A stretch of 64,000 nt of DNA from an uncultured archaeon (GCA_938045545.1 CALIBN010000007.1:32001-96000); one strand, 5' to 3'. Shown: positions 8,739-64,000, counted from the stretch's first letter. Numbers and translations are program-made. Notes: generated from the letters alone by a model not told the origin.

Positions 8739-11738
8739 ATGGCTCGTCAATTTAAAATGATAGAAGAAAATAAATTTAGAAAACCTGTTTCAATATTCAA
8801 GGGCGCTCCATTCTGGTCGATAAACGACCTGTTAACTGAGGATAAAGTTAGGAGAGAGGTTCAGATCTTATGCAGTGCTGGATACGGAGGCGCGTTCTTT
8901 CACGCTAGAGAAGGCCTCGTCACACCGTTCCTAAGTGAGGAATGGTTTAATGCTTTCAGAGTTGCGGTTGAAGAAGCGGAGAAAAACCACATGTTAATCT
9001 GGATTTACGACGAGCTCTGGTGGCCCTCCGGCTTCGCAGGGGGGCTTGTCCCTTTTTTAAGCTCTAAACACAGGGCTAAGGCGCTGGTCATGATGGTTGA
9101 CACGAGAAGCTACAAGGGGGAAGACATCATAGCGAGCTTCGAATGTGTTACAGATGGAAACGGTCTTCCGACAGAATTTAAGAGGGTTTTCGAAGAGAAG
9201 GCGGATTCAGAGAAGCTCTATCTGACATTTCTGAGGTACGTGGCGCCAGTCGGGGAGGCCTGGTACAATAGCTCATGCTACGTCGACCTTCTTGATTACG
9301 GGACAGTCAAGCAATTCTTAAACCTGGCCTACAAGCCTTACGTCGACCTTTTTAAGAAGGATATTGGAAGGACTATTCCAGGGGTTTTCACGGATGAGCC
9401 CAACTTCTCGTCAAGCAGGCCGCCTCCTAGGCAAGCCATGCCCCCGAGAGGGCCGAGGATACCACCCTTCTCAGTGCCATGGACAGACGGGCTTCCAGAG
9501 AGGTTCAGGGAGGTCAACGGGTATGATTTAATAGATCATCTTCCGAAGCTTTTCTTCGACGTCGGCGACTACATGAAGGTGCGGTATGATTTCTGGAGAA
9601 CTGTTACTCTTCTTTTCTTAGAGTCTTTCTCGAAACAGATATACGAGTGGTGCGATAGGAATAATCTGAAGTTTACCGGCCACTATTTGAGCGAGGACGA
9701 CCTTCTTGGTCAAACAATCCGCATAGGTGCAGCGATGCCTCATTACGAGTATCAGCATGTTCCTGGAATAGATCACCTGGGTATGCATGTCTGGAGGAGC
9801 CTGCTAACCGCTAAACAGGTTTCCTCGGCGGCGAACCAGCTTGGAAAAGAAAGGGTTCTATGCGAAGTCTACGGCTGCACCGGGAACTACCCGACTTTCG
9901 AGGACAGGAAGTGGATTGGCGACTGGCTTATAACGATGGGCGTGAACCTGATGTGCCACCACCTAGTTCCCTACTCGATGAGGGGTAGGAGGAAAAGGGA
10001 CTACGGGTTGAACTTCCACTGGGGTCAACCATGGTGGGATTACAACGAGTACATAGAGGATCATTTCTCAAGACTGTGCTACGTGCTTTCCAGCGGGAGG
10101 AGGATCGTAAACGTGCTCGTTATCCATTCGATTGGAAGCGCCTGGGCAAGCTATTCTCCGCTGAACGATTCCACTGTAAGGGTTCTGGACAGTCAGCTTA
10201 AAGGGTTGCTAATGTCCCTTCTGAAACTACATGTTGACTTCGACCTTGGCGACGAGATGCTTATGGAGAAACACGCTAGTGTCGAAGGCTCTAGGCTTAA
10301 GGTTGGGAATGCTTTCTACGACGTCGTGGTTGTACCGCCTTGTCTAACGCTTGCTGGAAGCACGATTAGGCTCTTAAAGAAGTTTAAAGACTCAGGAGGA
10401 GAATTAGTGTTCGTTAAACCGCTTCCGAGCCTGGTTGATGGGAAGCCGAGCGTAGAACTGGCGGAGCTCATCAACAGGTGTACAGTTAAAGAGGATTATG
10501 ACACAGGATCTTTGAGCGACGTTTTGCCGGACCACTGTAAAATTTTGAAAATAGATGGCGATGAAGAGGGTAATCTCCTATACCATTTGAGGAGAGACGA
10601 TTCTGGCGACATGTTTCTGTTCGTTTTTAACTCGAGCAGGGATAAGGCTGTGAACGCTAGAATCGGGCTTCACGGTTCTTTCAGCATTAAACTGTTAGAT
10701 ACTCTAAGCGGTTTAACATCGGAGTTTGAAGGCTATGTGGAAAACGGTTGGACGTATCTGGAGCATGTTTTCCAACCTGTTTCCTCACTCCTCCTTGCTT
10801 TCTCGCCTGGAAAGCCGAAGAACATGTCCGTCAAGCCTAGGAAAACCTTAGAAATACCACTGTCTTCAGACTGGAGTGTTAAACGGATTGATCCTAACGT
10901 GCTGGTTTTAGATTACTGTAGGTACAGGACGAGTGGTGATTGGAGTGAAAAAATGCCTCTTTGCAAGGCTAGAAAACAGATAGTTGCAGAAGGTGTTGGA
11001 ACAAGGTTTACTTTAAAATTCGATTTCGAGTTGAAAACTACTCCTCTAGGTAAGAGTATTAAGCTGGCCATGGAGACACCCCACTTGTTCAAGATTAGGA
11101 TAAACGGGAAAGACGCTCTCTGGAAGGATGAAGGAAACTGGGTTGACGACTGCCTCAGGGTGATGAGTGTAACCGAATATTTGAGAGAAGGTATGAACGA
11201 GATTGAGCTTGAAGGACTTGTCGGAATCGAGCCTGAGATGGAGAACATTTTCCTCATCGGCGAGTTCGGGGTTGAGCTTCCCCCTGGAAAAAATCCAGTG
11301 ATTGTCGATGAGCTTGCTCAGGTTGAAACTAGGGATCTGGCTAAACAGGGCTACCCGTTTTACGTCGGCTCCTTCGAACTGCGCAACGAGTTTCAGTATG
11401 GTGAGGACCCTAGCAGTAAGACGGTTGTCCTGAGGCTGGATGGCTTAAAGGCTGCGCTCGCCGTAGTCTATATTAACGGTCAGGAGGCTGGCAAGGTCTT
11501 CATGCATCCTTTCACTCTTGATGTGACAAGGCTTGTTAGAAAAGGGGTGAACGAGCTTAAAGTGAAGATCGTTGGGACGCTGAGAAATGCTTTCGGACCG
11601 CTGCACTACGCGGGAGGAGACCCGCTCTACATAGGCCCGGAGACTTTCGAGGATGAAAGACACTGGACTGATGAGTACGTTTTAAAACCGTTTGGGCTGG
11701 AGAAAGCGGAAATCGTTATTTACGAGAAAAGCCTTTAG
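8739..11738 (+). CDS. Glycoside hydrolase family 106 (alpha-L-rhamnosidase-like), no signal peptide
   Basis: PFWSIND, FFHAREGL.T.FLSEEW, WIYDE..WPSG.AGG, FTDEP, PGIDHL, CEVYG; C-terminal GH2-type beta-sandwich. Confidence 0.8.
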   Translation: MARQFKMIEENKFRKPVSIFKGAPFWSINDLLTEDKVRREVQILCSAGYGGAFFHAREGLVTPFLSEEWFNAFRVAVEEAEKNHMLIWIYDELWWPSGFAGGLVPFLSSKHRAKALVMMVDTRSYKGEDIIASFECVTDGNGLPTEFKRVFEEKADSEKLYLTFLRYVAPVGEAWYNSSCYVDLLDYGTVKQFLNLAYKPYVDLFKKDIGRTIPGVFTDEPNFSSSRPPPRQAMPPRGPRIPPFSVPWTDGLPERFREVNGYDLIDHLPKLFFDVGDYMKVRYDFWRTVTLLFLESFSKQIYEWCDRNNLKFTGHYLSEDDLLGQTIRIGAAMPHYEYQHVPGIDHLGMHVWRSLLTAKQVSSAANQLGKERVLCEVYGCTGNYPTFEDRKWIGDWLITMGVNLMCHHLVPYSMRGRRKRDYGLNFHWGQPWWDYNEYIEDHFSRLCYVLSSGRRIVNVLVIHSIGSAWASYSPLNDSTVRVLDSQLKGLLMSLLKLHVDFDLGDEMLMEKHASVEGSRLKVGNAFYDVVVVPPCLTLAGSTIRLLKKFKDSGGELVFVKPLPSLVDGKPSVELAELINRCTVKEDYDTGSLSDVLPDHCKILKIDGDEEGNLLYHLRRDDSGDMFLFVFNSSRDKAVNARIGLHGSFSIKLLDTLSGLTSEFEGYVENGWTYLEHVFQPVSSLLLAFSPGKPKNMSVKPRKTLEIPLSSDWSVKRIDPNVLVLDYCRYRTSGDWSEKMPLCKARKQIVAEGVGTRFTLKFDFELKTTPLGKSIKLAMETPHLFKIRINGKDALWKDEGNWVDDCLRVMSVTEYLREGMNEIELEGLVGIEPEMENIFLIGEFGVELPPGKNPVIVDELAQVETRDLAKQGYPFYVGSFELRNEFQYGEDPSSKTVVLRLDGLKAALAVVYINGQEAGKVFMHPFTLDVTRLVRKGVNELKVKIVGTLRNAFGPLHYAGGDPLYIGPETFEDERHWTDEYVLKPFGLEKAEIVIYEKSL

Positions 11739-11840: not shown

Positions 11841-12635
11841 TTGCTGAAAATAATTGTTCTCATAAAACAGGTTCCGGATATCGAGAGGGTAAGGTTCGAC
11901 GTAGAAACAGGTAGAATAGATAGGAGTTCAGCGCCGGCAGAGATAAACCCGTTTGACCTGAACGCTCTCGAGGCGGCTGTACAGATTAAGGAGAAGGTTG
12001 GAGGTTTCATCACTGCCATAAGCATGGGTCCGATGCAGGCCCTAAGCTCTCTGAGGGACGCTATGGCTAGGGGTGCTGACGACGCGATCCTTCTTGAAGA
12101 CAGGAGGTTCGCCGGAGCCGATACTTTGGCTACTTCCAACACTCTCGCTGCTGCTATTAGAAAGATCGGGTCCTACGATATTATTCTCTGCGGGGAGAAG
12201 ACTGTCGACGGTGACACCGGGCAGGTTGGCGCAGAGGTTGCGGAGCTTCTTGAAATCCCTCATGTCTACTATGTTTCAAGGATTGTTAACGTTTCTGAAA
12301 ACTCTATTACCGTCGTCTCCGAGATGGAGGATGCTTCCTACGTTTTGGAATCTGGTTTCCCGGTTCTGGTCAGCGTCACGAGGGATGTCAACAAGCCTAG
12401 GCTGCCAACATTGAAGAGCAAGATGAAGGCTATGAAAAGCGAGGTTAAAATATGGCACGCTGAGGACTTGAGCGGTTTTCTAGACCCGGATAAGGCTGGT
12501 TACGCTGGCTCTCCCACATGGGTTCACAAGGTTGTTGTTCAAAGGGAGAAAACCAGGCAGGTTAGGATATACAGACAGGTTGAAGAGGGGATTCAAGAGT
12601 TGATGCGCCTCTTAGAGTCTAAAGGGTTGATTTAA
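11841..12635 (+). CDS. etfB: Electron transfer flavoprotein beta subunit (FixA/LctB-like)
   Basis: KQVPD, INPFD..ALE.A, MGP, D..FAGADTLATS, G....DGDTGQVG, PRLP, GSPT.V. Confidence 0.93.
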   Translation: MLKIIVLIKQVPDIERVRFDVETGRIDRSSAPAEINPFDLNALEAAVQIKEKVGGFITAISMGPMQALSSLRDAMARGADDAILLEDRRFAGADTLATSNTLAAAIRKIGSYDIILCGEKTVDGDTGQVGAEVAELLEIPHVYYVSRIVNVSENSITVVSEMEDASYVLESGFPVLVSVTRDVNKPRLPTLKSKMKAMKSEVKIWHAEDLSGFLDPDKAGYAGSPTWVHKVVVQREKTRQVRIYRQVEEGIQELMRLLESKGLI

Positions 12636-12636
12636 A

Positions 12637-13641
12637 ATGGAGGGTAGAGGCTCAGGTGGAAAAGTACTCGTGGTCGCGGAGCTTAGGGGGGAGGCAATAC
12701 ACCCTGTTACTTTCGAGCTTCTCGGAAAAGGCAGGGAGATAGTGGAGCATACTGGTGGGGAACTCTGGAGCGTGGTTTTCGGCAGCAACGTGGATAAGGC
12801 TAAGGCTTCAGAGCTAATATATTACGGTGCAGACCGGGTTTTCCTCTTCAACGACCCTGTTTTTTCCGGTTTAAACACGATGGTTTACGCACACAATCTC
12901 ACTAGGCTTTGTAGGGAGGAGAAGCCGGACGTAATCCTGATAGGGGCAACATGCTTCGGAAGGTCTCTGGGTCCAAGGGTTGCGGCAGCGCTTAAAACGG
13001 GTTTAACAGCAGACTGCATAGATTTAAGGATGGACGAGAACGGTGAGCTGATACAGATCAGGCCAGCATTCGTGGGGAACATCTTAGCGTACATTAAGAC
13101 TAAGACTAAGCCCGTGATGTCTACTGTGCGGTACAAGGTTATGAGGGCGAGGGAGAAGGATGAGAGTAGAAGCGGCCTGATTATCGAAAAAACGGCTGAG
13201 AAACCTTTCCAAGACAGGATCAGGCTTATTGGGGAGGCAATACCCAAGAAGCTTAACATAGCGGATGCTGAAATCATAGTTGCAGGCGGCAGGGGGCTGG
13301 GGTCTGCGGAAGGATTCAAGCTACTGGGGGAGCTCGCCAGCCTGCTTGGAGGAGTTGTGGGCTCAAGCAGGCCGCCTGTGGACGACGGGTGGATAAGGAA
13401 GGAGCATCAAGTCGGCTATAGCGGGAGCATAGTTAAGCCTAGGCTGTATATTGCTTGCGGAATCTCCGGCTCGCCGCAACACCTGTTCGGCATGAAGGAT
13501 GCCGAAACAATAATAGCCATTAACAGCGACCCTTCGGCACCCATATTCAGGGTTGCTGACTACGGTATTGTGGGAGACCTTTATCAGATCATACCCCTTA
13601 TGGTAAAAGAGATAAAAGCCAGGAGGGGCGGCGTAGGTTGA
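12637..13641 (+). CDS. etfA: Electron transfer flavoprotein alpha subunit (FixB/LctC-like), without an N-terminal ferredoxin domain
   Basis: TGLTADC, QIRPAF.GN, IIVAGGRG, SRP.VD.GW, QVG.SG..V.P.LYIA.GISG..QH..GM, AIN.D..APIF..ADYG.VGDL. Confidence 0.93.
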   Translation: MEGRGSGGKVLVVAELRGEAIHPVTFELLGKGREIVEHTGGELWSVVFGSNVDKAKASELIYYGADRVFLFNDPVFSGLNTMVYAHNLTRLCREEKPDVILIGATCFGRSLGPRVAAALKTGLTADCIDLRMDENGELIQIRPAFVGNILAYIKTKTKPVMSTVRYKVMRAREKDESRSGLIIEKTAEKPFQDRIRLIGEAIPKKLNIADAEIIVAGGRGLGSAEGFKLLGELASLLGGVVGSSRPPVDDGWIRKEHQVGYSGSIVKPRLYIACGISGSPQHLFGMKDAETIIAINSDPSAPIFRVADYGIVGDLYQIIPLMVKEIKARRGGVG

Positions 13642-15002
13642 TGGAGGGTTTAGCAGAGCGACTTGAGGAAATCGTAGGCAGGGAAGCGGTGGTAAGCGGT
13701 AAAGACAAGATTGAGAGCTACTTGTTCGATGAAACGTGCATTCCGGTGAGACCGTCTGCCATATCAGACTGCATAGTGGTTAAGCCTGCTAACAGCGCCG
13801 AGGTTTCGAGAATCCTTAGGCTGGCTAACGAAAAAAGAATTCCAGTATACCCTAGGGGAGGCGGGACAGGCCTTGTGGGAGGGGCTGTGCCGACTAGAAG
13901 CGGGATAATCGTTTCCCTGGAGAGGATGAATCGGATTGAAGTGGACGAGGAAAACCTGATGGCTGTCGCAGAAGCCGGGGCGACACTGGGGGAGCTCCTG
14001 AAGGCTGCTGAGGAAGCAGGCCTCTCTTTCCCGCCGCATCCCGGGGACGAGGGTGCTCAGATAGGCGGCCTCGTGGCCTGCAACGCTGGCGGGGCCAGGG
14101 CGGTTAAGCATGGTGTCATGAGGGGCTTCGTAAAGGGCTTGGAGGTTGTTCTGCCCACCGGGGAAATCGTAACGTTTGGCGGTAGGCTTCTGAAAGACAA
14201 CATGGGCTACAGCTTGATGCACTTGATCATAGGAAGCGAGGGCACGCTTGGAATTATAACTAAGGTTGTTTTAAGGCTTAACCCTAAAGCGCCATACTCC
14301 TTCACCCTGCTGCTTCCTTTCAACTCGAGGCATGACGCGCTTAATACTGTCCCAAGAATACTGCGCTCCGGGGTGACTCCCCTTGCTCTAGAGTATGTCG
14401 AGAAGGAGTTGATGGAGCTGTCTGCTGAACACTTGGGCGAGAAATGGGTTTTCGAGGGAAAAGTCTTTCTCATAGCAATACTGGCTGGGGAGGAGAACGT
14501 TGTCTACTCTGAGGCTGAAAAGCTTTCCCAGCTATGCGTTGAGAACAACGGGCTTGAGCCTTCAGTTGCAGAGAGAAGGGACGAGCAGGAATCCATTTTG
14601 AGAATAAGAAGCAATATTTACACCGCTCTTAAACGCGACTCCATGGATATTCTTGACACGACGGTTCCACCATCTGCAATTGGAAAGCTGGCGGACGCTA
14701 TCGACACTATTGCCGAGAAATATGGCGCGCACATTCCTGTTTACGGTCATGCTGCAGATGGAAATGTTCACTCCCACGTAATGAAGAGGGATGCTGAGAA
14801 ATATGAGTTGATTAAGAGAGAAATATATGAGACTACGATAGGCCTTGGAGGAACCATCAGCGGTGAACACGGTGTCGGGAAAATACGGGTGAAGGAGCTT
14901 TACCGGTTCACGCATCCGAAGAAAATCGAGCTTATGAAGGCGGTTAAAAGGCTTTTTGACCCGAATAATATTCTAAATCCTTCCACGGTGCTAGAGGTTT
15001 AG
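13638..15002 (+). CDS. FAD-linked D-2-hydroxyacid dehydrogenase (GlcD/LctD family, D-lactate dehydrogenase-like)
   Basis: RGGGTGLVGG, IGG.VA.NAGG.RAVK.G, GSEGTLGIIT, GHAADGNVH, SGEHGVG, FDP.NILNP; start overlaps etfA stop. Confidence 0.88.
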   Translation: MMEGLAERLEEIVGREAVVSGKDKIESYLFDETCIPVRPSAISDCIVVKPANSAEVSRILRLANEKRIPVYPRGGGTGLVGGAVPTRSGIIVSLERMNRIEVDEENLMAVAEAGATLGELLKAAEEAGLSFPPHPGDEGAQIGGLVACNAGGARAVKHGVMRGFVKGLEVVLPTGEIVTFGGRLLKDNMGYSLMHLIIGSEGTLGIITKVVLRLNPKAPYSFTLLLPFNSRHDALNTVPRILRSGVTPLALEYVEKELMELSAEHLGEKWVFEGKVFLIAILAGEENVVYSEAEKLSQLCVENNGLEPSVAERRDEQESILRIRSNIYTALKRDSMDILDTTVPPSAIGKLADAIDTIAEKYGAHIPVYGHAADGNVHSHVMKRDAEKYELIKREIYETTIGLGGTISGEHGVGKIRVKELYRFTHPKKIELMKAVKRLFDPNNILNPSTVLEV

Positions 15003-23016: not shown

Positions 23017-23520
23017 CTATCTTCTCGCTTCTCTGACCATGTGGCCGATTTCAGGAAGTATCAGCCTCCTAATCGCTAATTCCACAGCATTCTTCGAACC
23101 CGGTAGACATATAAGTATCTTTCCCTTTACAACTCCTGCGAACGCTCTTGTAAGCATCGCAGCCGTACCTATTTCACTGTAGCTGAGGAACCTGAAAAGC
23201 TCGCCGAACCCCTCAATCCTCTTCTCAACTGTTTTAGAGACTGTTTCAACCGTAACGTCCCTCCTGCTCAACCCGGTTCCTCCCATAGTCAGTATAACGT
23301 CGATTCCCCCGTTGCTAAGCAGCTCTTCAATGATCCTCCTTATCTCCCCCTCGTCGTTCCGCACGATAATCCTCTTGCACACCTCGTGCCCACTGCTCTT
23401 CAAAATATCCTCCGCTATCCTACCGGATTCGTCTGTTTCAACCGTTCTGGAGTCGCTTACAGTAACCAGTGCGAAAACGAGGCTTCTGGGAGAAGCCTTC
23501 CTATGTTCTAAATAGTCCAA
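23017..23520 (-). CDS. moaB: Molybdopterin adenylyltransferase MoaB/MogA family
   Basis: TVSD, D.SG, GGTG...RDVT.E, GFGE.FR, LPGS. Confidence 0.92.
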   Translation of the reverse strand: MDYLEHRKASPRSLVFALVTVSDSRTVETDESGRIAEDILKSSGHEVCKRIIVRNDEGEIRRIIEELLSNGGIDVILTMGGTGLSRRDVTVETVSKTVEKRIEGFGELFRFLSYSEIGTAAMLTRAFAGVVKGKILICLPGSKNAVELAIRRLILPEIGHMVREARR

Positions 23521-23969
23521 TCCTTAACCTTCTCCTCGATAACTATGCTTTCTATCGCTGTGAACGGATACTGCCCTTTCTCATCCTTCTCAATCTCCTT
23601 AACCATGTCCCAGACCGTTAGTAAAGCTGCAGCCACCCCGGTTAAAGCCTCCATCTCCACACCGGTCTTAGACTCTGAGACAACCCGACATACTACTGAA
23701 ACCCTGTCTTCCCCCGTTTGAAACTCGACAGCTATATGTGTTAGAGGAATAGGGTGGCAGCCGGGTATCAGCTCAGGAGTCTTCTTAACAGCTAGGATTG
23801 CTGAAACCTTTGCAACAGTAAGAACATCGCCTTTCGCAATCCTACCGGTTTTCAACGCATCCACTGTTTCGCGCCTAAGCCTTATCCATCCCTTTGCAAC
23901 AGCCATCCTGCGTGAAGGCTCCTTGCCGCTTATGTCGACCATCTCCAGCCCCTTTTCGTTCCAGTTCAA
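23508..23969 (-). CDS. moaC: Cyclic pyranopterin monophosphate synthase MoaC
   Basis: MVDIS.K....R.A.A, KGDV, K.T..LIP.CHP, TGVEMEAL, WDMVK. Confidence 0.95.
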   Translation of the reverse strand: MNWNEKGLEMVDISGKEPSRRMAVAKGWIRLRRETVDALKTGRIAKGDVLTVAKVSAILAVKKTPELIPGCHPIPLTHIAVEFQTGEDRVSVVCRVVSESKTGVEMEALTGVAAALLTVWDMVKEIEKDEKGQYPFTAIESIVIEEKVKDWTI

Positions 23970-23972
23970 GGT

Positions 23973-24383
23973 TTAAACAGCCTCCTTAACCCATCTTTCC
24001 CCTCTGGGTGTAACCTCTTTTTTCCATATTGGTGCACGTGCCTTAACCTCGTCTATAATCCAGCTGCAGGCTTTGAAAGCCTCCCTCCGACTTTCGGCTG
24101 AGGCGGCCACCAGAACTATGTTTTCTGCCTGCTTCAGTCTTCCAACCCTATGAATAATGGCTGCATCAATTATTCTGAATTTTTCTAAAGCGTTTCTCCT
24201 TATTTTTTCAAGCTCCGCCTCCGCAACCTCCCTGTATGCTTCGACAATCATCTCGCTAACAGTCTCCCCTTCCCTAAACCCCTTCACAACACCTAGGAAA
24301 AACACTATTGCGCCGGTTTCCATTCCCTTCAGTGTTGAAGCAACCTCGTCTATTGAGAAATCATCCTCGGTAACGCGGATCAT
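23973..24383 (-). CDS. moaE: Molybdopterin synthase catalytic subunit MoaE
   Basis: GAIV.F.G.V, EAY, HRVG.L, R.EAF, D.VK..APIWKKE. Confidence 0.93.
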   Translation of the reverse strand: MIRVTEDDFSIDEVASTLKGMETGAIVFFLGVVKGFREGETVSEMIVEAYREVAEAELEKIRRNALEKFRIIDAAIIHRVGRLKQAENIVLVAASAESRREAFKACSWIIDEVKARAPIWKKEVTPRGERWVKEAV

Positions 24384-24384
24384 T

Positions 24385-24624
24385 CTAACCGCCTCCGGCT
24401 GGAGGGAACACGGCTACTACATCTCCCTCGTTTAAACAGGTGTTCAAATCCACTGTTCTCCCGTTAACAGCTATAAGGAAGTTCTCCCCAGCCAGGTCAG
24501 CATGCCTCCCCCTGAGTTTTTCAACGATTTTCCCAACGGTTGTCCCCTCGTCAACCTCCAGTGTCTCCTTCTCGCCGACTTTCTCCCTAATCCAAGCGTA
24601 ATATTTTACTTCGATCCTCATCAT
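24385..24624 (-). CDS. moaD: MoaD/SAMP ubiquitin-like sulfur carrier
   Basis: V.YYA..RE..G, AVNG, GDVVA.FPP.GGG C-terminus. Confidence 0.92.
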   Translation of the reverse strand: MMRIEVKYYAWIREKVGEKETLEVDEGTTVGKIVEKLRGRHADLAGENFLIAVNGRTVDLNTCLNEGDVVAVFPPAGGG

Positions 24625-57923: not shown

Positions 57924-59186
57924 ATGCTAGTTAAGATACCTTTCGGAAAGGGCTTTGAAGAGTGTGAGATTGAGGATTCCAGGATCCATGCTCATCTCGA
58001 GCCATCTTGGCCCACGCCTGGTAACCCTGATTTTTTCATTGAAAACGCTTTATCGAATCCGATAGGGTCTAAAAGCCTTGATGAGCTTGCCGAGAGTGCG
58101 GGCAGGATACTAATTATTACTAGTGATAACACTAGGCCCGTCCCGAGTAAAACTACTCTTCCAAGGCTTATCTCAAAAATGAAGAAGGCGTCGCCACAGG
58201 CTTCTATACGGCTGCTAGTGGCTACCGGGCTACACGAATGGTCTCCCAGTGGAAGCGAGTTGAAAGAGAAGTTCGGTCAGGCGCTGGACTATTTAGATGA
58301 GTTTGTTATTCACTCGGCTAAAAACGTTGGTTCGCTGGTTAACCTCGGCTCGTTGTCAACCGGCAACAGGCTTTACGTAAACACTCTTTTAAAAGAGGCC
58401 GACCTAGTGGTTTCTGAGGGATATATTGAGGGCCACTTCTTCGCAGGCTTCACCGGGGGGCCGAAGAGTGTTCTCCCCGGCGTTTCAGGGGTTGAGACCA
58501 TAATGAACAATCACTCTCCGAGAAACATTGATCATCCGAACGCCAGGTGCGGTGTTGCTGAGGGAAACCCTATATACGAGGAGATGCTGGAGGCAGCAAA
58601 CATGGCAAGACTCCGCTTCATTCTGAACGTCGTGTTAGACGGTAGGAAGCGGATGCTTTCAGCCTTCGCAGGAGACCCGATTGAAGCGCATAGAAGTGGC
58701 CGTGTCTTCACTTTAAAATACTGCGGTGTGAAGCCAGTCCCAGGGGATATAGTAATAACTTCAAACGGCGGTTATCCTCTAGACCGAAACCTCTACCAGC
58801 TTGTTAAAGGTATTTCAAACGGTGCCCTGACGGCTAGGGAGGACGGTGTAATCGTGGCGTGCGGCGAATGCGTAGACGGGGTTGGGCACCAAGGGTTCTA
58901 CGAGATGCTTGCCTCCTCAAGCAGCCCAGGCGAGTTTCTAAGGAGACTTAGGTCTGGAGAAATATGGAGGGAGGCGCAATGGGAGGCCCAGGTTTTGGCG
59001 AGAGTCTTAGAGAAGTTTCGCGTGATAGTTGTCTCAAGAGGCGTGGATTCGAAAACAGTTGAATCCATGCATATGATGCATGCGAAAAGCCTGAAGGAGG
59101 GTTTGGAAATCGCTCTTAGCCTCAAGCCTCTGGGGAGGATAACTCTTCTCCCCGACGGCCCTTCCACAATACCTCTTCCACAATAA
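57924..59186 (+). CDS. larA: Nickel-pincer-dependent lactate racemase family protein
   Basis: D.TRP.P, ATGLH, HFFAGF.GG.KS..PG, NHS, GGYP.D.N.YQ.VKG, C.DG.G, QW.AQ. Confidence 0.9.
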   Translation: MLVKIPFGKGFEECEIEDSRIHAHLEPSWPTPGNPDFFIENALSNPIGSKSLDELAESAGRILIITSDNTRPVPSKTTLPRLISKMKKASPQASIRLLVATGLHEWSPSGSELKEKFGQALDYLDEFVIHSAKNVGSLVNLGSLSTGNRLYVNTLLKEADLVVSEGYIEGHFFAGFTGGPKSVLPGVSGVETIMNNHSPRNIDHPNARCGVAEGNPIYEEMLEAANMARLRFILNVVLDGRKRMLSAFAGDPIEAHRSGRVFTLKYCGVKPVPGDIVITSNGGYPLDRNLYQLVKGISNGALTAREDGVIVACGECVDGVGHQGFYEMLASSSSPGEFLRRLRSGEIWREAQWEAQVLARVLEKFRVIVVSRGVDSKTVESMHMMHAKSLKEGLEIALSLKPLGRITLLPDGPSTIPLPQ

Positions 59187-59227
59187 GCGGTTAGCAGCAT
59201 ACTGTCTATGCGGATTATCTGCCTACA

Positions 59228-59851
59228 TTACCATCTGGTGAATTCAACCGTCTTATCTCTCTTAGGCGGGATGCCGGATGTGTGCACAAGATACCGGATC
59301 TGTGAGGAAGCCTCGATCATACAGGTGACGTGGTAAGCCTCTTCCAGGAGCTTAGCCGCGGCGAATGTTCCGTGACCCCTCACCACAACCCCCTTATAGT
59401 GTTTAAGCGCCTCCGAAACCTTTTCCTCAAGCTCCTTGGAGCCGCTCACTTCTTTAACAACAAGCACAGGTACTTTTCTAAGCACGTAGTCTCCCTCGGC
59501 ATCCATCGGAATTATCTCGTCGAAAATCAGTGAGCAGACTATCGAGTAGGGTGGGTGAGCATGTACAACGGCCAGTGCTGAAGTATTAAGATATATGGCC
59601 CTGTGAACCATGGTTTCAGAAGAGCTTAATAGTATGGAACTATCCTCCTCGAAAAGGTCTACTTCAACAATGTCCTCAGGCCCTATCTCGTCGGCAGCCG
59701 CACCCCTCCTTTTAATATACATCTTATCGCCAACCCTAACGCTTATGTTTCCGCTATGGCTAACCATGTAGCCTTTGTCGAAAAGCTTCTTGCCATACTT
59801 GCTTATCTCCTTCCAAACCTCGCTTACACCACTAATGTTCAATTCTCTCAA
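59228..59851 (-). CDS. Class II aldolase (fuculose/rhamnulose-1-phosphate aldolase family)
   Basis: GNIS.R, SSE...H..IY, VHAHP, .GHG. Confidence 0.88.
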   Translation of the reverse strand: MRELNISGVSEVWKEISKYGKKLFDKGYMVSHSGNISVRVGDKMYIKRRGAAADEIGPEDIVEVDLFEEDSSILLSSSETMVHRAIYLNTSALAVVHAHPPYSIVCSLIFDEIIPMDAEGDYVLRKVPVLVVKEVSGSKELEEKVSEALKHYKGVVVRGHGTFAAAKLLEEAYHVTCMIEASSQIRYLVHTSGIPPKRDKTVEFTRW

Positions 59852-59948
59852 TTTTCCTTCTCATTAAAAGTAATATTTAAAGACTCTGGGCGTTATTACG
59901 CAACTCTTTCCCCATCTTGTTTGCAATAATCTGCCTGAGCTAGTCTTA

Positions 59949-60195
59949 CTCCTCCTCGATAAAGATGAGGAGTTCGCTATGCTGGGAGACTAGGGTTATC
60001 TGAAATCTTAAAGAGGCTTGATAGGCTTGAAAAACTAGGTTAGGCCGTGGGAGGATCAGAATAAGCTTTGGGAAGAGGTTAGGAGCATAAGGAGCGAGAT
60101 CCGATACATGAGAGCCGAGTTAAGAGCTTCGGAAGAGCTGTTGGAAGGACTTTACAACGGCATTCGTGGAAATCATCCTGGAAGAGAGGGTTACG
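59949..60195 (+). pseudogene. Decayed remnant of an archaeal coiled-coil / PD-(D/E)XK (DUF3782-like) gene
   Basis: Frame-shifted pieces LLDKDEEF / YAGRLGLSEILKRLDRLE / WEDQNKLWEEVRSIRSEIRYMRAE / KSFGRAVGRTL / AFVEIILEERG. Confidence 0.6.
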
Positions 60196-60418
60196 CTAGG
60201 GCGCGCTCCAATAATCTTCAAACAGCACCAACTAAAGGTTTACACTCCCCAACTCCCATGGATTTAAGCATAGCTATTTTTTAATTTTTTAATTCACATA
60301 AAGAATCGTATACGTTGCATTGGAAGCTCATTCATTTTTTTAAAAGAAGCTATCACCTCAGCTTCTGGAAGCAAGCTTGTTGCCCCTGTAAGCATGATTT
60401 CCAGTTTAACCCTTCTGT

Positions 60419-62197
60419 CTAACCATCCAAGTCCAATTTCTCAATTGTTCTCCTAGTTGGGCGCCCCTCATTATCCCATCCTCTTGCCCTATAATACTCG
60501 TTAAGCATTAGGTCGAGCTCAACAACCTGCCCCTTTGTTGGTCCATCAGCCAATGGCTCGCTTAGAAGCCTCTTAGGAAGAGTATCATCCCTCCTGCTAA
60601 ACCCCTCTCTTATGTTGAAAAGCCTCTCGAGGTTCCATATTCTCTCGCCTACGAGCATGAGGTCTTCAGCCGTATACTTTACGCCGGTTGCAGCTGAAAG
60701 CATCCTTGAGTAGTATTCTTCGTCAAGCCCGTATCCTGTGAACCTGCATGCTACGAGCGTATCCATGGCTGCGTAAAGGTTCTGCTGGTATATCACTAGG
60801 CCGGCCTTGTTGACCGTCGAAAACCTGTCTATCCTCTTCGGAACCCCAAGTATTTCCAAGCCTATCATATACGACCTTAGGTGGCAGCCTCCCCTGTTGC
60901 TTGTGGCGTATGCTAGCCCCTGCCCCTTCGCTCCCCGGGGGTCGTAGGCGGGCAGCTCCAAGCCTTTAACATGCATGGCTGCATCTGGATCCCCGTATTT
61001 CTCAGCGAGCCTACGCGAGCCCTCTGCAAGATCGTTTCCGAAGCCCTTCCTGTAAGCGGTTTCCTCAATCAGCTCCATGATTTTATCCCCGTCGCCCCAC
61101 TTTACTTCCTCAGGCGTCAAACCCTTCTCGCTAAGCTCCATCGCGCAGGCTATCGTAACGCCTGTTGAAATAGTGTCCAGCCCAAGGTCGTTGCACAAAT
61201 TGTTTGCCCTCCAAATCGTCTCAAGGTCCCAAAGCAGGCAGCAGGAGCCAAGTGAGAAGACTGTCTCATACTCCGGCCCCTCGCCCTCAGCACTGTCTAG
61301 ACGAGTCCTCCTGCCGCACGAGATCCCGCATCCGAAGCATGCCTTAGGTTTAACAAGCAGCCTCCTGGTTATCTCCTCTCCAGCAATATTCCTTGCCTCA
61401 GGCACGAAAGTTGCCTGGAAGTTTTTAGCCGGCAGCACGCCAAGCTCGTTCATAAGATTTACTAAAACAGCCGTCCCAAACCTGGGTAGGGCTTTACTCG
61501 TAATAGGGTTCTGGCCGAAAACCCTGTTGCATTCTCTGACTACGAAGAGAAAATTCTCCTTGTCGGCGATTTCAACTGTCTTGCTTCCTTTTGCGACGAT
61601 TGCTTTCAGCTTCTTCGAACCCATTACTGCGCCGACCCCGCCTCTCGCAGCAGCCCTGTAGTAGTCGTTCATTATTCCCGCTATTCTCACAAGGTTTTCC
61701 CCCGCAGGGCCTATGCACGCTACCCTGGCTTCCTTCCCGAACTTTTCAGTCAACATGCTCGTGGCTTCAAACACTCTCATACCCCAGTATTTTTCACCGT
61801 CTAGAACCTGAATATCCTTATCATCCATGTATATTATCACCGGGTTTTGAGCTGCTCCCCGGATTACGAGCACATCGATGCCGCATGCTTTGAACCTGGT
61901 TGCGAAAAATCCTCCCGAGTTTGCGTCGAATATCGTGCCTGTCAACGGGGATTTGGTTGACACGGAGAACCTGCCTGAAGTCGGCGCAGCCGTTGCCGTA
62001 AGCGGGCCGACTGCGAAAACCAGCACGTTATTCTTGCTTAAAGGGTCAACTTCAGGGCCAACGTTGTCGTAGACGATTTTAGCTCCTATTCCTCTTCCAC
62101 CGATAAACCTGAGCTTCTCATCCTCATTCCACGTGCGAAAAGTTATCTTTGAACTAGACAGGTCTACCTCGGCGATTGATCCCATCCAGCCTGCCAT
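60419..62197 (-). CDS. aor: Tungsten-type aldehyde:ferredoxin oxidoreductase
   Basis: GGRG.G, KSPLTG, IGPAGE, A.RGG.GAVMGSK.LKA, C..C...C, EYET, G.DTIS.G, KG.E.PAYDPR, RGGCH, YY..RGW...G.P. Confidence 0.93.
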   Translation of the reverse strand: MAGWMGSIAEVDLSSSKITFRTWNEDEKLRFIGGRGIGAKIVYDNVGPEVDPLSKNNVLVFAVGPLTATAAPTSGRFSVSTKSPLTGTIFDANSGGFFATRFKACGIDVLVIRGAAQNPVIIYMDDKDIQVLDGEKYWGMRVFEATSMLTEKFGKEARVACIGPAGENLVRIAGIMNDYYRAAARGGVGAVMGSKKLKAIVAKGSKTVEIADKENFLFVVRECNRVFGQNPITSKALPRFGTAVLVNLMNELGVLPAKNFQATFVPEARNIAGEEITRRLLVKPKACFGCGISCGRRTRLDSAEGEGPEYETVFSLGSCCLLWDLETIWRANNLCNDLGLDTISTGVTIACAMELSEKGLTPEEVKWGDGDKIMELIEETAYRKGFGNDLAEGSRRLAEKYGDPDAAMHVKGLELPAYDPRGAKGQGLAYATSNRGGCHLRSYMIGLEILGVPKRIDRFSTVNKAGLVIYQQNLYAAMDTLVACRFTGYGLDEEYYSRMLSAATGVKYTAEDLMLVGERIWNLERLFNIREGFSRRDDTLPKRLLSEPLADGPTKGQVVELDLMLNEYYRARGWDNEGRPTRRTIEKLDLDG

Positions 62198-62294
62198 GTT
62201 AAGTGTCGGGAAAGATGTCTTGTAAGTATTTATAAGTGTATTGTAGGAATACTCGGTAAAAACATATAAGCATGAGGAGGCTGGAAGAAACGGA

Positions 62295-62537
62295 ATGAAG
62301 ATTCTGGTTAAGTATTTCGCCTCCTACAGGGAGGCTGTGGGAAAATACGAGGAGGAACTGGAGCTTACACCCGGCTCAACCGTTAAGGAGGTTCTCGAAG
62401 AGATAGTTTCGAAGCATCCTGGAGTTGAGGTTGATAAGGAGGCAATAATTGTCTTAAACCAGAAGATAGTTAGGGATAATCCGGAAGTTAAAGATGGCGA
62501 TGTTCTGGCAATTTTCCCGCAGCTGGGTGGCGGGTGA
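62295..62537 (+). CDS. moaD: Second MoaD/ThiS-family ubiquitin-like protein, divergent from aor
   Basis: VKYFA..RE..G, DGD.LAIFP..GGG. Confidence 0.85.
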   Translation: MKILVKYFASYREAVGKYEEELELTPGSTVKEVLEEIVSKHPGVEVDKEAIIVLNQKIVRDNPEVKDGDVLAIFPQLGGG

Positions 62538-62630
62538 CAGTTAAGCCTGTTGACGGATGTTAGCCGGAATAAGCCTCGTGTTTCTATGGAAAGTAAAGTT
62601 AAAAAGTGACTGAAAAGAGTTAAGTGGGAA

Positions 62631-63416
62631 ATGAAGTTCTCAGTCCAAGAGAATCTTGTTCCCGGTGCTAATTTAGAGGAGAAGCTTAGGAAGCTTGAAA
62701 ACTATGGTTATGACGGTATTGAGCTTTGGGGGAGACAGGAGCTCGGCGGGGTTCTAAAGAATGTTTTGGATGCGTTATCCACCACTAGCGTTAAGGTGAG
62801 CACTATTTGTTCAGGATACTCGGGAAGCCTGCTTTCTCCAAGAAGAGAAGACAGGGAGGCGGCATTAAAAGGGATAAAGGAGAGGCTCGAGTGGGCTAAT
62901 AGGCTTGGTGCGGTAGGGGTTATAACGGTACCGGTCTTTGGGGAGGCAACTGTTCCAGACCTTTCTCCTCTTTTCAAAGACAAGTTTGAACTGGAGTGGA
63001 AGCTGGCTGTAGAAGAATACAGGATTCTTGGGAGGCATGCGAGGGATGTTGGAAGCATAGTGATTGTGGAGCCGCTTAACAGGTATGAGACTCACTTCCT
63101 CAAGACGCTTTCTCAAGCCGCCTCGCTCTGTGAAGAAGTCGGCTTAGACGAGGTGAGAATAATGGCTGACTATTTCCACATGAGTATTGAGGAGGTTGAC
63201 ATCGGGTCAAGCCTGAGGAAACATCTTGAAAAGATTGTTCACGTGCACCTTGCTGACAGCAACAGGTTGACGCCAGGAAGAGGACATACTGATTTCAGTT
63301 CTTTGAGGATTCTGAGAGAAGGAGGCTATAAGCATTATCTTACCTTGGAGTGCGGCGTACCCGGCGAGCCTGATGAGGAGTTGAGAAGAACGCTAAGCTT
63401 CCTTAAATCATTCTGA
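62631..63416 (+). CDS. Sugar phosphate isomerase/epimerase (xylose-isomerase-like TIM barrel)
   Basis: GYDGIEL, EPLNRYET, D.FHM.IEE, HVHLADSNR..PG.GH.DF, LEC. Confidence 0.9.
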   Translation: MKFSVQENLVPGANLEEKLRKLENYGYDGIELWGRQELGGVLKNVLDALSTTSVKVSTICSGYSGSLLSPRREDREAALKGIKERLEWANRLGAVGVITVPVFGEATVPDLSPLFKDKFELEWKLAVEEYRILGRHARDVGSIVIVEPLNRYETHFLKTLSQAASLCEEVGLDEVRIMADYFHMSIEEVDIGSSLRKHLEKIVHVHLADSNRLTPGRGHTDFSSLRILREGGYKHYLTLECGVPGEPDEELRRTLSFLKSF

Positions 63417-63449: not shown

Positions 63450-64000
63450 TTGAAGCCTGTTGATCGCGTGCTCACTACGCTTAATCATGAGGAGCCCGAC
63501 ATGGTTCCCTGCCTCTGGGCTGTTGCAGACGGCCTCAAACAGCTTCAAGAAGCTTTCAGGGCCAGAGAAATGCCCCAGGATCTTGTGGGCGTAGGAAGCA
63601 TTCCGGAGACAAGGGTTTTAGAGCAGGGTTCTGAACACAGGCTTTTAGAATCCGTTTTCGGAGACGTGCATCGCGTCTCTTACAAAGTGTATTATGGTTA
63701 CAGGGAGTTAGTTAAGCCAGCCGTCTCAAAGCCGGAGGATCTTAATAGGCTTGAAGAACTACGGTTCGAATTATCTAGAGAAAATGTTAAGAGGATCAGG
63801 GTGAATGTTGAGAAAAACAGTGATCGCTTCACCTTCATAAGTCACGAGAGCCCTTTCGGCTTAGCAGCATACTCCTTAAGGGGTTTCAAACAGTTTCTAA
63901 CAGACATAGTTGTTAACCCGGGTTTCGCCAAAAAGATTCTCAGTTTCGGAGTTAAGGTGCTTATGGAAATGTCAAGGCAAATAATAGAGGAAACAGGTGT
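63450..64000 (+). CDS. Partial URO-D/MtaA-family protein (runs off the right edge)
   Basis: Manual translation from TTG at 63450: MKPVDRVLTTLNHEEPDMVP...SPFGLAAYSLRGFKQFLTDIVVNP..., open to the window end. Confidence 0.75.
   Translation, partial: MKPVDRVLTTLNHEEPDMVPCLWAVADGLKQLQEAFRAREMPQDLVGVGSIPETRVLEQGSEHRLLESVFGDVHRVSYKVYYGYRELVKPAVSKPEDLNRLEELRFELSRENVKRIRVNVEKNSDRFTFISHESPFGLAAYSLRGFKQFLTDIVVNPGFAKKILSFGVKVLMEMSRQIIEETG

Follow-up and report, generated by a model that had tools for sequence, protein, structure and literature searches.

The window analysed here, a stretch of 64,000 nucleotides from an uncultured archaeon (GCA_938045545.1, CALIBN010000007.1:32001-96000), carries near its end a two-gene unit in which aor, the gene for a tungsten-type aldehyde:ferredoxin oxidoreductase (AOR), is followed by a class II aldolase gene of the PRK08660 type, with an extra moaD gene diverging from aor. 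The coupling of this aldolase to AOR is a robust finding, and a more general one than the deoxyhexose fermentation pathway that had been proposed for positions 57924-63416 from the sequence alone (hereafter the sequence-only reading). The genes on which that proposal was built, namely larA, a class II aldolase gene, aor, moaD and a sugar isomerase/epimerase gene within 5.5 kb, are all present as open reading frames (ORFs) that match the families named, and their orientations are mixed as described (Table 1). The 5.5-kb stretch is best read as a place where three units meet and not as a single pathway cluster. The DNA comes from a hot-spring metagenome-assembled genome (MAG) of 2.03 Mb in 51 contigs, with an estimated completeness of 92%, and the nearest public loci, whose aldolases share 94-97% identity with the present one, carry the name Candidatus Brockarchaeota or are listed as uncultured Thermoproteota/Nitrososphaerota.

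The evidence for the coupling lies first in the conservation of the pair, which was followed through 80 loci, the best of 553 relatives obtained by scanning the collection with an alignment of seven aldolases. An AOR gene is present in 50 of these loci, upstream on the same strand in 47 and convergent in three. Among the 47, the two genes lie within 150 nt of each other in 27 cases, several of them overlapping, are separated by 151-2000 nt in 18 and stand farther apart in two. The adjacency exceeds what chance would give, counting both the loci that lack AOR and the 10 in which less than 2.5 kb of upstream sequence leaves its presence impossible to judge. Tight pairs occur in Brockarchaeota, Helarchaeota, Methanomicrobia, Methanofastidiosia, Halobacteria, Bacillota, Actinomycetota, Deltaproteobacteria-type and other MAGs. 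Two distant members of the phylum, G002 and G005, with 42-46% aldolase identity, have the arrangement without LarA, and in G015, from another family of the same order, the whole succession of moaD, aor-aldolase and LarA recurs with only 11 nt between aor and the aldolase gene. Thus, of the clustering on which the sequence-only reading relied, the aor-aldolase part is kept across phyla, but the adjacency of aldolase and LarA is limited to 7 of the 80 loci, all from Brockarchaeales. A predicted AOR-aldolase complex reached a median score of 0.26 against a mark of 0.32 in a run without controls, which speaks neither for nor against binding.

The second line of evidence comes from AOR itself. The protein is an AOR in the strict sense, since it contains both AFOR_N and AFOR_C and its nearest solved relative is an AOR, that of Pyrococcus furiosus (1AOR; 610 bits, full length), and not FOR (379 bits), GAPOR, WOR5 (199) or BamB (178). 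A quick maximum-likelihood tree was built from the 28 aldolase-linked AORs, the four other AOR paralogues of the genome and, from a Helarchaeota locus, one AOR that is not linked to an aldolase. In this tree the linked enzymes form one clade (SH-aLRT 100) from which the paralogues and the unlinked AOR are excluded. The Fe-S cysteines and catalytic positions, assigned by correspondence with P. furiosus residues, are invariant among the 28 aligned sequences, and the gene evolves with a dN/dS of 0.06. A difference from the P. furiosus enzyme is that a dedicated aldolase partner is encoded alongside AOR here, whereas the physiological substrates in P. furiosus are thought to be aldehydes derived from amino acids. 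Since the pair is kept across phyla and the linked AORs fall in one clade, the step in which the aldolase would make an aldehyde and AOR would oxidise it is well supported.

AOR enzymes have a broad substrate range, and the genes of this region are oriented in different directions. One might accordingly regard AOR as a general scavenger of aldehydes, with the aldolase, LarA and the isomerase-like barrel as unrelated neighbours, much as the description of Brockarchaeota links AFOR only to the oxidation of formaldehyde and, in a term search of its main text, shows neither lactate nor aldolase, 'rhamn-' or fucose (PMC8065059). Such an absence of any specific coupling is very unlikely given the persistence of the aor-aldolase order across phyla with very short or overlapping spacers, the dedicated clade of linked AORs and the presence of four other AOR paralogues in the genome that are available for general duty.

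The aldolase partner is a single-domain class II protein without fused ferredoxin. It matches PF00596 over residues 15-186 (121.7 bits, cut-off 22.2) and passes NF006413/PRK08660, a model to which no function is attached (230.9 against a cut-off of 203); two aldolase paralogues of the same genome score only 85 and 68 on that model. H97, H99, H160, N35 and S77 are invariant in 28 sequences, of which 90% or more retain E79; in the set of seven this residue is E or D. In an alignment with solved FucA proteins, these residues fall on the HxH, GHG and SSE motifs; the three histidines and the acidic residue are metal ligands, and the asparagine and serine form the phosphate site. The best solved relative is an uncharacterised Thermus protein (2FK5, 99.5 bits), and dN/dS is 0.04-0.05. 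Between the two genes lies a spacer that had been regarded as a pseudogene relic. Its sequence matches both ends of the aor-aldolase gap in locus L023 (2973-4290), which is 1319 nt long, with identities of 87% and 80%, and the corresponding gaps elsewhere measure 78-139 nt in L024 and L025 and 11-14 nt in L028-L031. The spacer is thus, to judge by these alignments, the remnant of a lineage-specific insertion and not an ancestral feature; a relic gene does not emerge from it, as it contains no ORF of at least 60 aa and its longest frame matches no Pfam family. The long gap in L023 holds a hydrophobic ORF of 134 aa without family match, and the window retains only the two ends of the insertion.

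The third gene of the unit, the moaD that diverges from aor, has the same position in the Brockarchaeota loci L023-L026 and L028-L031. The window also contains the molybdenum cofactor genes that the sequence-only reading had reported, among them a canonical moaD (24385-24624, minus strand) whose 79-aa product is 39% identical to the aor-linked MoaD. Because the canonical gene adjoins moaE, directly upstream of it, the copy beside aor is an extra, AOR-associated one, which most likely serves the synthesis of the pterin cofactor for AOR.

Table 1. Features of the window, with positions counted from its first nucleotide
Feature	Position	Strand	Evidence
GH106-like glycoside hydrolase, weak match	8739..11738	+	PF17132 42 bits (cut-off 29); NF049897 60.7 (cut-off 1300)
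etfB-etfA-lctD-like operon, Etf-dependent D-2-hydroxyacid/lactate dehydrogenase type	11841..15002	+	ETF, ETF_alpha, FAD_binding_4, FAD-oxidase_C
mog-like, moaC, moaE, canonical moaD	23017..24624	-	MoCF_biosynth, MoaC, MoaE matches
moaA	30396-31322		
LarA-type lactate racemase homologue	57924..59186	+	Lar_N 175 bits, LarA_C 142 bits
Class II (metal-dependent) aldolase, PRK08660 type, second gene of pair	59228..59851	-	PF00596
567-nt aor/aldolase spacer, remnant of lineage-specific insertion	59852..60418	.	no ORF of at least 60 aa
AOR, tungsten-type aldehyde:ferredoxin oxidoreductase, first gene of pair	60419..62197	-	AFOR_N 253 bits, AFOR_C 501 bits
Extra MoaD-like sulfur carrier	62295..62537	+	ThiS 65.7 bits; TIGR01687 moaD_arch 64.4 (cut-off 49.5)
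Xylose-isomerase-like TIM barrel, sugar or keto-acid isomerase/epimerase family	62631..63416	+	AP_endonuc_2 123 bits
URO-D-like gene running off the window end	63450..64000	+	22.6 bits (cut-off 23.9); frame continues into L110 1-481

How these genes work together is less certain. We see about an even chance for a model of three units with the aor-aldolase pair, acting on a ketose-1-phosphate, at its core. The aldolase would split the ketose-1-phosphate into dihydroxyacetone phosphate (DHAP) and a small aldehyde, and AOR would oxidise the latter to the acid with reduction of ferredoxin. LarA would be a companion of the unit in Brockarchaeales only, and the TIM barrel would open another gene string, the last members of which, a second AOR and a class I aldolase::ferredoxin fusion, lie a short way beyond the window. 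Which way the flux runs, and which aldehyde is oxidised, we infer. In this lineage the aldehyde could be L-lactaldehyde from a 6-deoxyketose-1-phosphate, an assignment that is tentative and short of probable; that it is acetaldehyde or methylthioacetaldehyde, from pentuloses arising as by-products of S-adenosylmethionine (SAM), is unlikely, and glycolaldehyde, glyceraldehyde or another compound takes up the remaining probability. The sequence-only reading had AOR oxidise lactaldehyde released by the aldolase: the conservation of the pair and the AOR clade bear out the coupling, but they do not settle that lactaldehyde is the aldehyde concerned.

Several observations weigh against this model or against the pathway that had been built on it. 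Among the 70 aldolase loci that can be judged, 20 are without AOR, and in Thermoplasmata a deacetylase-family gene on the opposite strand stands between aor and the aldolase gene. The aldolase is far under the cut-offs of all named subfamily models, which include those for FucA (TIGR01086, 44.8 against 400; NF040649, 73.8 against 250), RhaD (NF002963, 29.8 against 170), MtnB (TIGR03328, 55.7 against 137) and AraD (TIGR00760, 27.5 against 389); none of these scores places it with FucA or RhaD. Two other class II aldolases of the genome, on contigs C8 and C17, are found beside FGGY kinases, the former together with an NAD-type aldehyde dehydrogenase. The nickel-pincer cofactor genes larB, larC and larE were found in none of the order's 12 genomes with LarA, the present one, 92% complete, included. 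The Etf/LctD operon is 43 kb away from the LarA/aldolase/aor cluster, and much of the co-occurrence within the order may come down to whether a genome has one particular region of about 45 kb.

The pathway in question would run in full from fuculose- or rhamnulose-1-phosphate to L-lactaldehyde, through AOR to L-lactate, through LarA to D-lactate and through Etf/LctD to pyruvate, the ferredoxin reduced by AOR being used again in the last step. Its chemistry is coherent, and the extension of the aor-aldolase core by deoxyhexose, LarA and LctBCD is a reasonable hypothesis for this lineage, although a somewhat unlikely one, as is the complete route; the main rival is the salvage of SAM by-products. 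LarA provides an argument in its favour, because a racemase of 2-hydroxy acids would have a purpose here only with a chiral 2-hydroxy acid as the product of AOR. The LarA of the window scores 455.8 on NF033504, 4 bits under the cut-off of 460, with the malate racemase models far lower. In an alignment to 6C1W it keeps the equivalents of the Lactobacillus plantarum residues H108, H174, K184, H200, D72, R75, Y294, Q295 and K298, among which we take the positions other than H108 and H174 to be the cofactor-tethering lysine, the nickel-ligand histidine and the residues that bind lactate; the retention of these last is in line with the pathway. H108 and H174 are described as catalytic in PMC11770544. 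Measured with two close relatives, the dN/dS of LarA is 0.09-0.11, much as for the aldolase and AOR, and the gene is intact and under purifying selection.

The distribution of LarA points in the same direction within the clade, and less clearly beyond it. Genomes were sampled from the order (n = 26), from the phylum (n = 61) and from outside the phylum among carriers of the pair (n = 10), and the counts rest on related genomes. In the order, the aldolase is found in 11 genomes and LarA above its cut-off in 12, all 11 aldolase genomes having LarA; the two genes are adjacent in eight and on different contigs in three. The moaD/aor-aldolase/LarA block is kept in three genera although the flanking genes differ. 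In the phylum sample, a LarA-family gene accompanies the aldolase in 7 of 7 genomes, as against 13 of the 54 others (Fisher p 1.8e-4), and in 6 of 6 aldolase families, as against 6 of 17 (p 0.014), both values being uncorrected for relatedness. Co-occurrence across related MAGs thus holds as the sequence-only reading would have it for the order and the phylum, but in the 10 genomes from outside LarA is strong in only four, borderline in three and lacking in three. Moreover, since LarA and the aldolase gene are convergent, they do not belong to one operon.

The missing cofactor genes are a difficulty for the pathway. The genome contains no LarC, its best LarE score is 57 against a cut-off of 150, and its sole AIRC match is an open frame of 144 aa, LarB proteins being longer than this; the lack of larBCE, which the sequence-only reading had itself named as a ground for giving up the pathway, thus formally applies to this genome. 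In the order, LarB, LarC and LarE are confined to genus g3, with LarC and LarE in all three of its genomes and LarB above the cut-off in two, and this genus has no LarA. Similarly, the phylum sample comprises 20 genomes with LarA and 26 with LarC, only six of which have both, and LarC is missing from 14 of the 20 LarA-bearing genomes, some of them rated 98-100% complete. So many genomes of the phylum share this absence that it does not show LarA to be inactive. The opposite situation, in which larBCE occurs but LarA does not, has been reported (PMC13524815); no statement on LarA without larBCE was found in the parts of PMC11770544 and PMC13524815 that we consulted.

For the last step of the pathway, the window provides an operon of the Etf-dependent type. 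The LctD-like dehydrogenase is a member of the D-specific FAD oxidase family and, among solved proteins, comes closest to LctD of Acetobacterium woodii (7QH2_C, 285 bits; glycolate oxidase, 213 bits). The best solved relatives of EtfA are bifurcating-type EtfA proteins. However, the 334-aa EtfA aligns only from residue 78 of the 418-residue LctC onwards and therefore has no N-terminal ferredoxin domain. In the order, 12 of the 26 genomes have an LctD-like gene, nine of them together with LarA and eight with both aldolase and LarA; in at least five genomes the LctD-like gene is on the contig that carries LarA. The lct operon of A. woodii contains LctBCD and a LarA-type racemase. The present genome resembles it in possessing an EtfB-EtfA-LctD-like trio and a LarA homologue, and differs in that these genes are 43 kb apart, that EtfA is without the ferredoxin domain of LctC and that larBCE is absent. 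The juxtaposition of a GH106 gene with an LctBCD-like operon, which the sequence-only reading had noted, is borne out in the kinship of the operon to LctD, with a weak match for GH106 and no ferredoxin domain of the LctC type.

The enzymes that would feed a deoxyhexose into the aldolase are found in the genome only in part. The window has no cognate kinase or isomerase, and an FGGY kinase together with a TIM barrel occurs near the pair in G015 alone, where these two genes and one for a D-2-hydroxyacid dehydrogenase lie just upstream of the moaD/aor-aldolase/LarA block. This arrangement is what the full pathway would lead one to expect, but the G015 kinase is nearest to xylulokinase-like paralogues, with the rhamnulokinase-like gene not among its matches. 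Elsewhere in the present genome, contig C15 carries a rhamnulokinase-like FGGY kinase gene (L109 9181-10668; 487 bits, cut-off 528), which is surrounded by genes for GH116, acetate kinase and PTA and adjoins neither an aldolase nor an isomerase gene, and two genes of the fucose/arabinose-isomerase family are found at C7:14454-14858 and C28:26415-26795. Kinase and isomerase candidates thus exist, as the pathway would need, but all of them are unlinked to the pair, and no RhaA-type isomerase was found in the genome. Nor is AOR without competition: a minus-strand operon on C8 (L021 5286-10368, about 93.3-98.4 kb) encodes an FGGY kinase, a FucA-like class II aldolase, an NAD-type aldehyde dehydrogenase (370 bits on the lactaldehyde-dehydrogenase model, below its cut-off) and a D-2-hydroxyacid dehydrogenase, and the further aldolase on C17 is accompanied by a xylulokinase-like kinase and a xylose-isomerase-like barrel. 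The C8 operon, a conventional ketose-1-phosphate route, means that the genome does have an NAD-dependent option, contrary to the suggestion that AOR replaces such a dehydrogenase.

Outside Brockarchaeales, the surroundings of the pair give little encouragement to a pathway of sugar degradation. The neighbours are housekeeping genes, coding for RNA-binding proteins, TFIIS, L7Ae, tRNA synthetases, riboflavin, folate and anthranilate enzymes, H+-PPase and transaldolase. Among 17 cluster representatives and a separate set of 45 neighbours there is no kinase, isomerase, glycosidase, LarA or lactate dehydrogenase, and these two sets together with a third of 29 proteins show no sugar or lactate genes by the pair outside the clade, except in L033-L035 (Hadarchaeota/Thermococci-type), where the aldolase gene is followed by that of an FGGY kinase.

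Such a housekeeping context, in many strict anaerobes, would suit a constitutive role, and this brings in the salvage of SAM by-products. In this scheme MTAP and MtnA would yield 5-methylthio- or 5-deoxy-ribulose-1-phosphate, from which the aldolase would release DHAP, and AOR would oxidise the methylthioacetaldehyde or acetaldehyde in a ferredoxin-linked version of the DHAP shunt. There is a precedent in DrdA, the aldolase of 5-deoxyribose salvage described in PMC6079011, and in 4 of the 80 loci (L056, L070, L084 and L092, from Peptococcaceae/Bacillota MAGs) the aldolase stands beside MTAP, MtnA, AhcY and an amidohydrolase resembling 5'-deoxyadenosine/methylthioadenosine deaminases. These four loci are, however, all from related bacteria, and AOR is present only in L056. 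The genome under study likewise encodes two MTAP-like and two MtnA-like proteins and AhcY, but the MtnA-like genes are on C10 and C8, not clustered with the aldolase, and their co-occurrence with it says nothing, because MtnA is found in 60 of the 61 phylum genomes. The solved DrdA of Bacillus thuringiensis (6BTD) matches the aldolase at only 42 bits, and L033-L035 have an FGGY kinase after the aldolase instead. Finally, salvage leaves the co-occurrence with LarA unexplained, since acetate is no 2-hydroxy acid. Taken together, we regard this explanation as unlikely.

Two side observations concern aldolases of the same genus and genome. Six genus-mates (G047, G074, G023, G076, G075 and, with a partial copy, G069) have a different, FucA-like aldolase and are without the AOR-linked one; over the 17 genomes of the genus, six have the AOR-linked aldolase, six the FucA-like one and five neither, and none has both. 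This exclusivity may reflect functional replacement or just two subclades. No salvage genes were noted among the neighbours of the FucA-like gene in the genus-mates; MtnA lies about 1 kb from it in G047 (L113 4627-7371) and G023 (L114 4190-6961). At C10:13554-15304, a gene for an archaeal-type 3-dehydroquinate synthase II adjoins that of a DeoC-family (ADH-synthase-like) aldolase, which suggests that the genome uses the alternative route to aromatic amino acids. A tie between this synthase and the AOR-linked aldolase was considered and rejected: the synthase is found in only 3 of the 7 phylum genomes that carry the aldolase, and many genomes possess it without the aldolase.

The TIM barrel, which the sequence-only reading counted as a member of its cluster, is present but is co-directional with a different string of genes. 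Its best NCBIfam match is IolO (139 bits, cut-off 300), and it occupies this place in same-genus loci only. Past the end of the window, in L110 (C7:96001-106000), the plus strand continues with genes for a PK_C-like protein, a DeoC-family paralogue, a fusion of DeoC to a 4Fe-4S ferredoxin and a second AOR (L110 583-5061, equivalent to C7:96583-101061), all of them running in the direction of the window's moaD, TIM barrel and URO-D-like genes and separated by short spacers or overlapping. The fusion protein has 414 aa with the ferredoxin domain at its C-terminus, and the second AOR has 606 aa and is 44% identical to the first. The string is kept in three same-genus loci (L024-L026). The TIM barrel gene is thus the first enzyme gene of a second string that ends in a unit of class I aldolase::ferredoxin and AOR, and the nearness of this second aldolase-AOR unit speaks for the model centred on the first. 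Two more AOR paralogues, at C17:64703-66959 and C29:67195-69235, each adjoin a small ferredoxin-domain gene, recognised because it resembles the ferredoxin portion of the DeoC fusion.

Compared with known systems, the aor-aldolase unit has its closest chemical analogue in the catabolism of L-fucose and L-rhamnose of the Escherichia coli type, in which a class II metal aldolase also produces DHAP and a 2-hydroxyaldehyde that is then oxidised to the acid. That route comprises FucI/RhaA, FucK/RhaB and FucA/RhaD followed by AldA or FucO; a summary is also given in PMC6079011. Here, the aldehyde step would be carried out by a tungsten-type, ferredoxin-linked enzyme instead of an NAD-linked one, the aldolase is a short protein of the PRK08660 type that fails the FucA and RhaD models, and the cluster has neither kinase nor isomerase. 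The DHAP shunt and 5-deoxyribose salvage (MtnP or MtnK, MtnA/DrdI, Ald2/DrdA) share with it a class II aldolase that is a separate protein and acts after MTAP and MtnA, a setting in which the four Bacillota loci place this very aldolase family; the known versions, however, reduce or release the aldehyde, none being described with AOR, and the similarity to 6BTD is low. In the literature outside subscription journals and supplements, we found no paper connecting AOR to lactaldehyde, to fuculose or to class II aldolases along these lines, and the literature on Haloferax tungsten enzymes yielded nothing relevant.

The physiological substrates of tungsten enzymes of the AOR family have been uncertain since their discovery. 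A dedicated aldolase partner that recurs from Asgard and methanogen-related archaea to Bacillota and bacteria of the Deltaproteobacteria type provides an assayable idea, namely that AOR oxidises the aldehyde half of a ketose-1-phosphate. In its widest form, the proposal would be that a widespread module of aldolase and tungsten AOR shows which class of substrates canonical AOR oxidises in vivo, and that Brockarchaeota use it to convert lactaldehyde through lactate to pyruvate in a ferredoxin-balanced manner, with a LarA that is active without LarB, LarC and LarE; the whole of this is decidedly unlikely to be correct. The occurrence of intact LarA without the cofactor genes, in 12 of 12 genomes of the order and 14 of 20 of the phylum, bears on the supply of the nickel-pincer cofactor, and an active LarA under these circumstances would imply an unknown source of the cofactor or a LarA working in another way. 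Were the proposed role of AOR to hold, the electrons from the aldehyde would be placed on ferredoxin and not on NAD, which would change the energy and redox balance of sugar or SAM by-product metabolism in many anaerobes.

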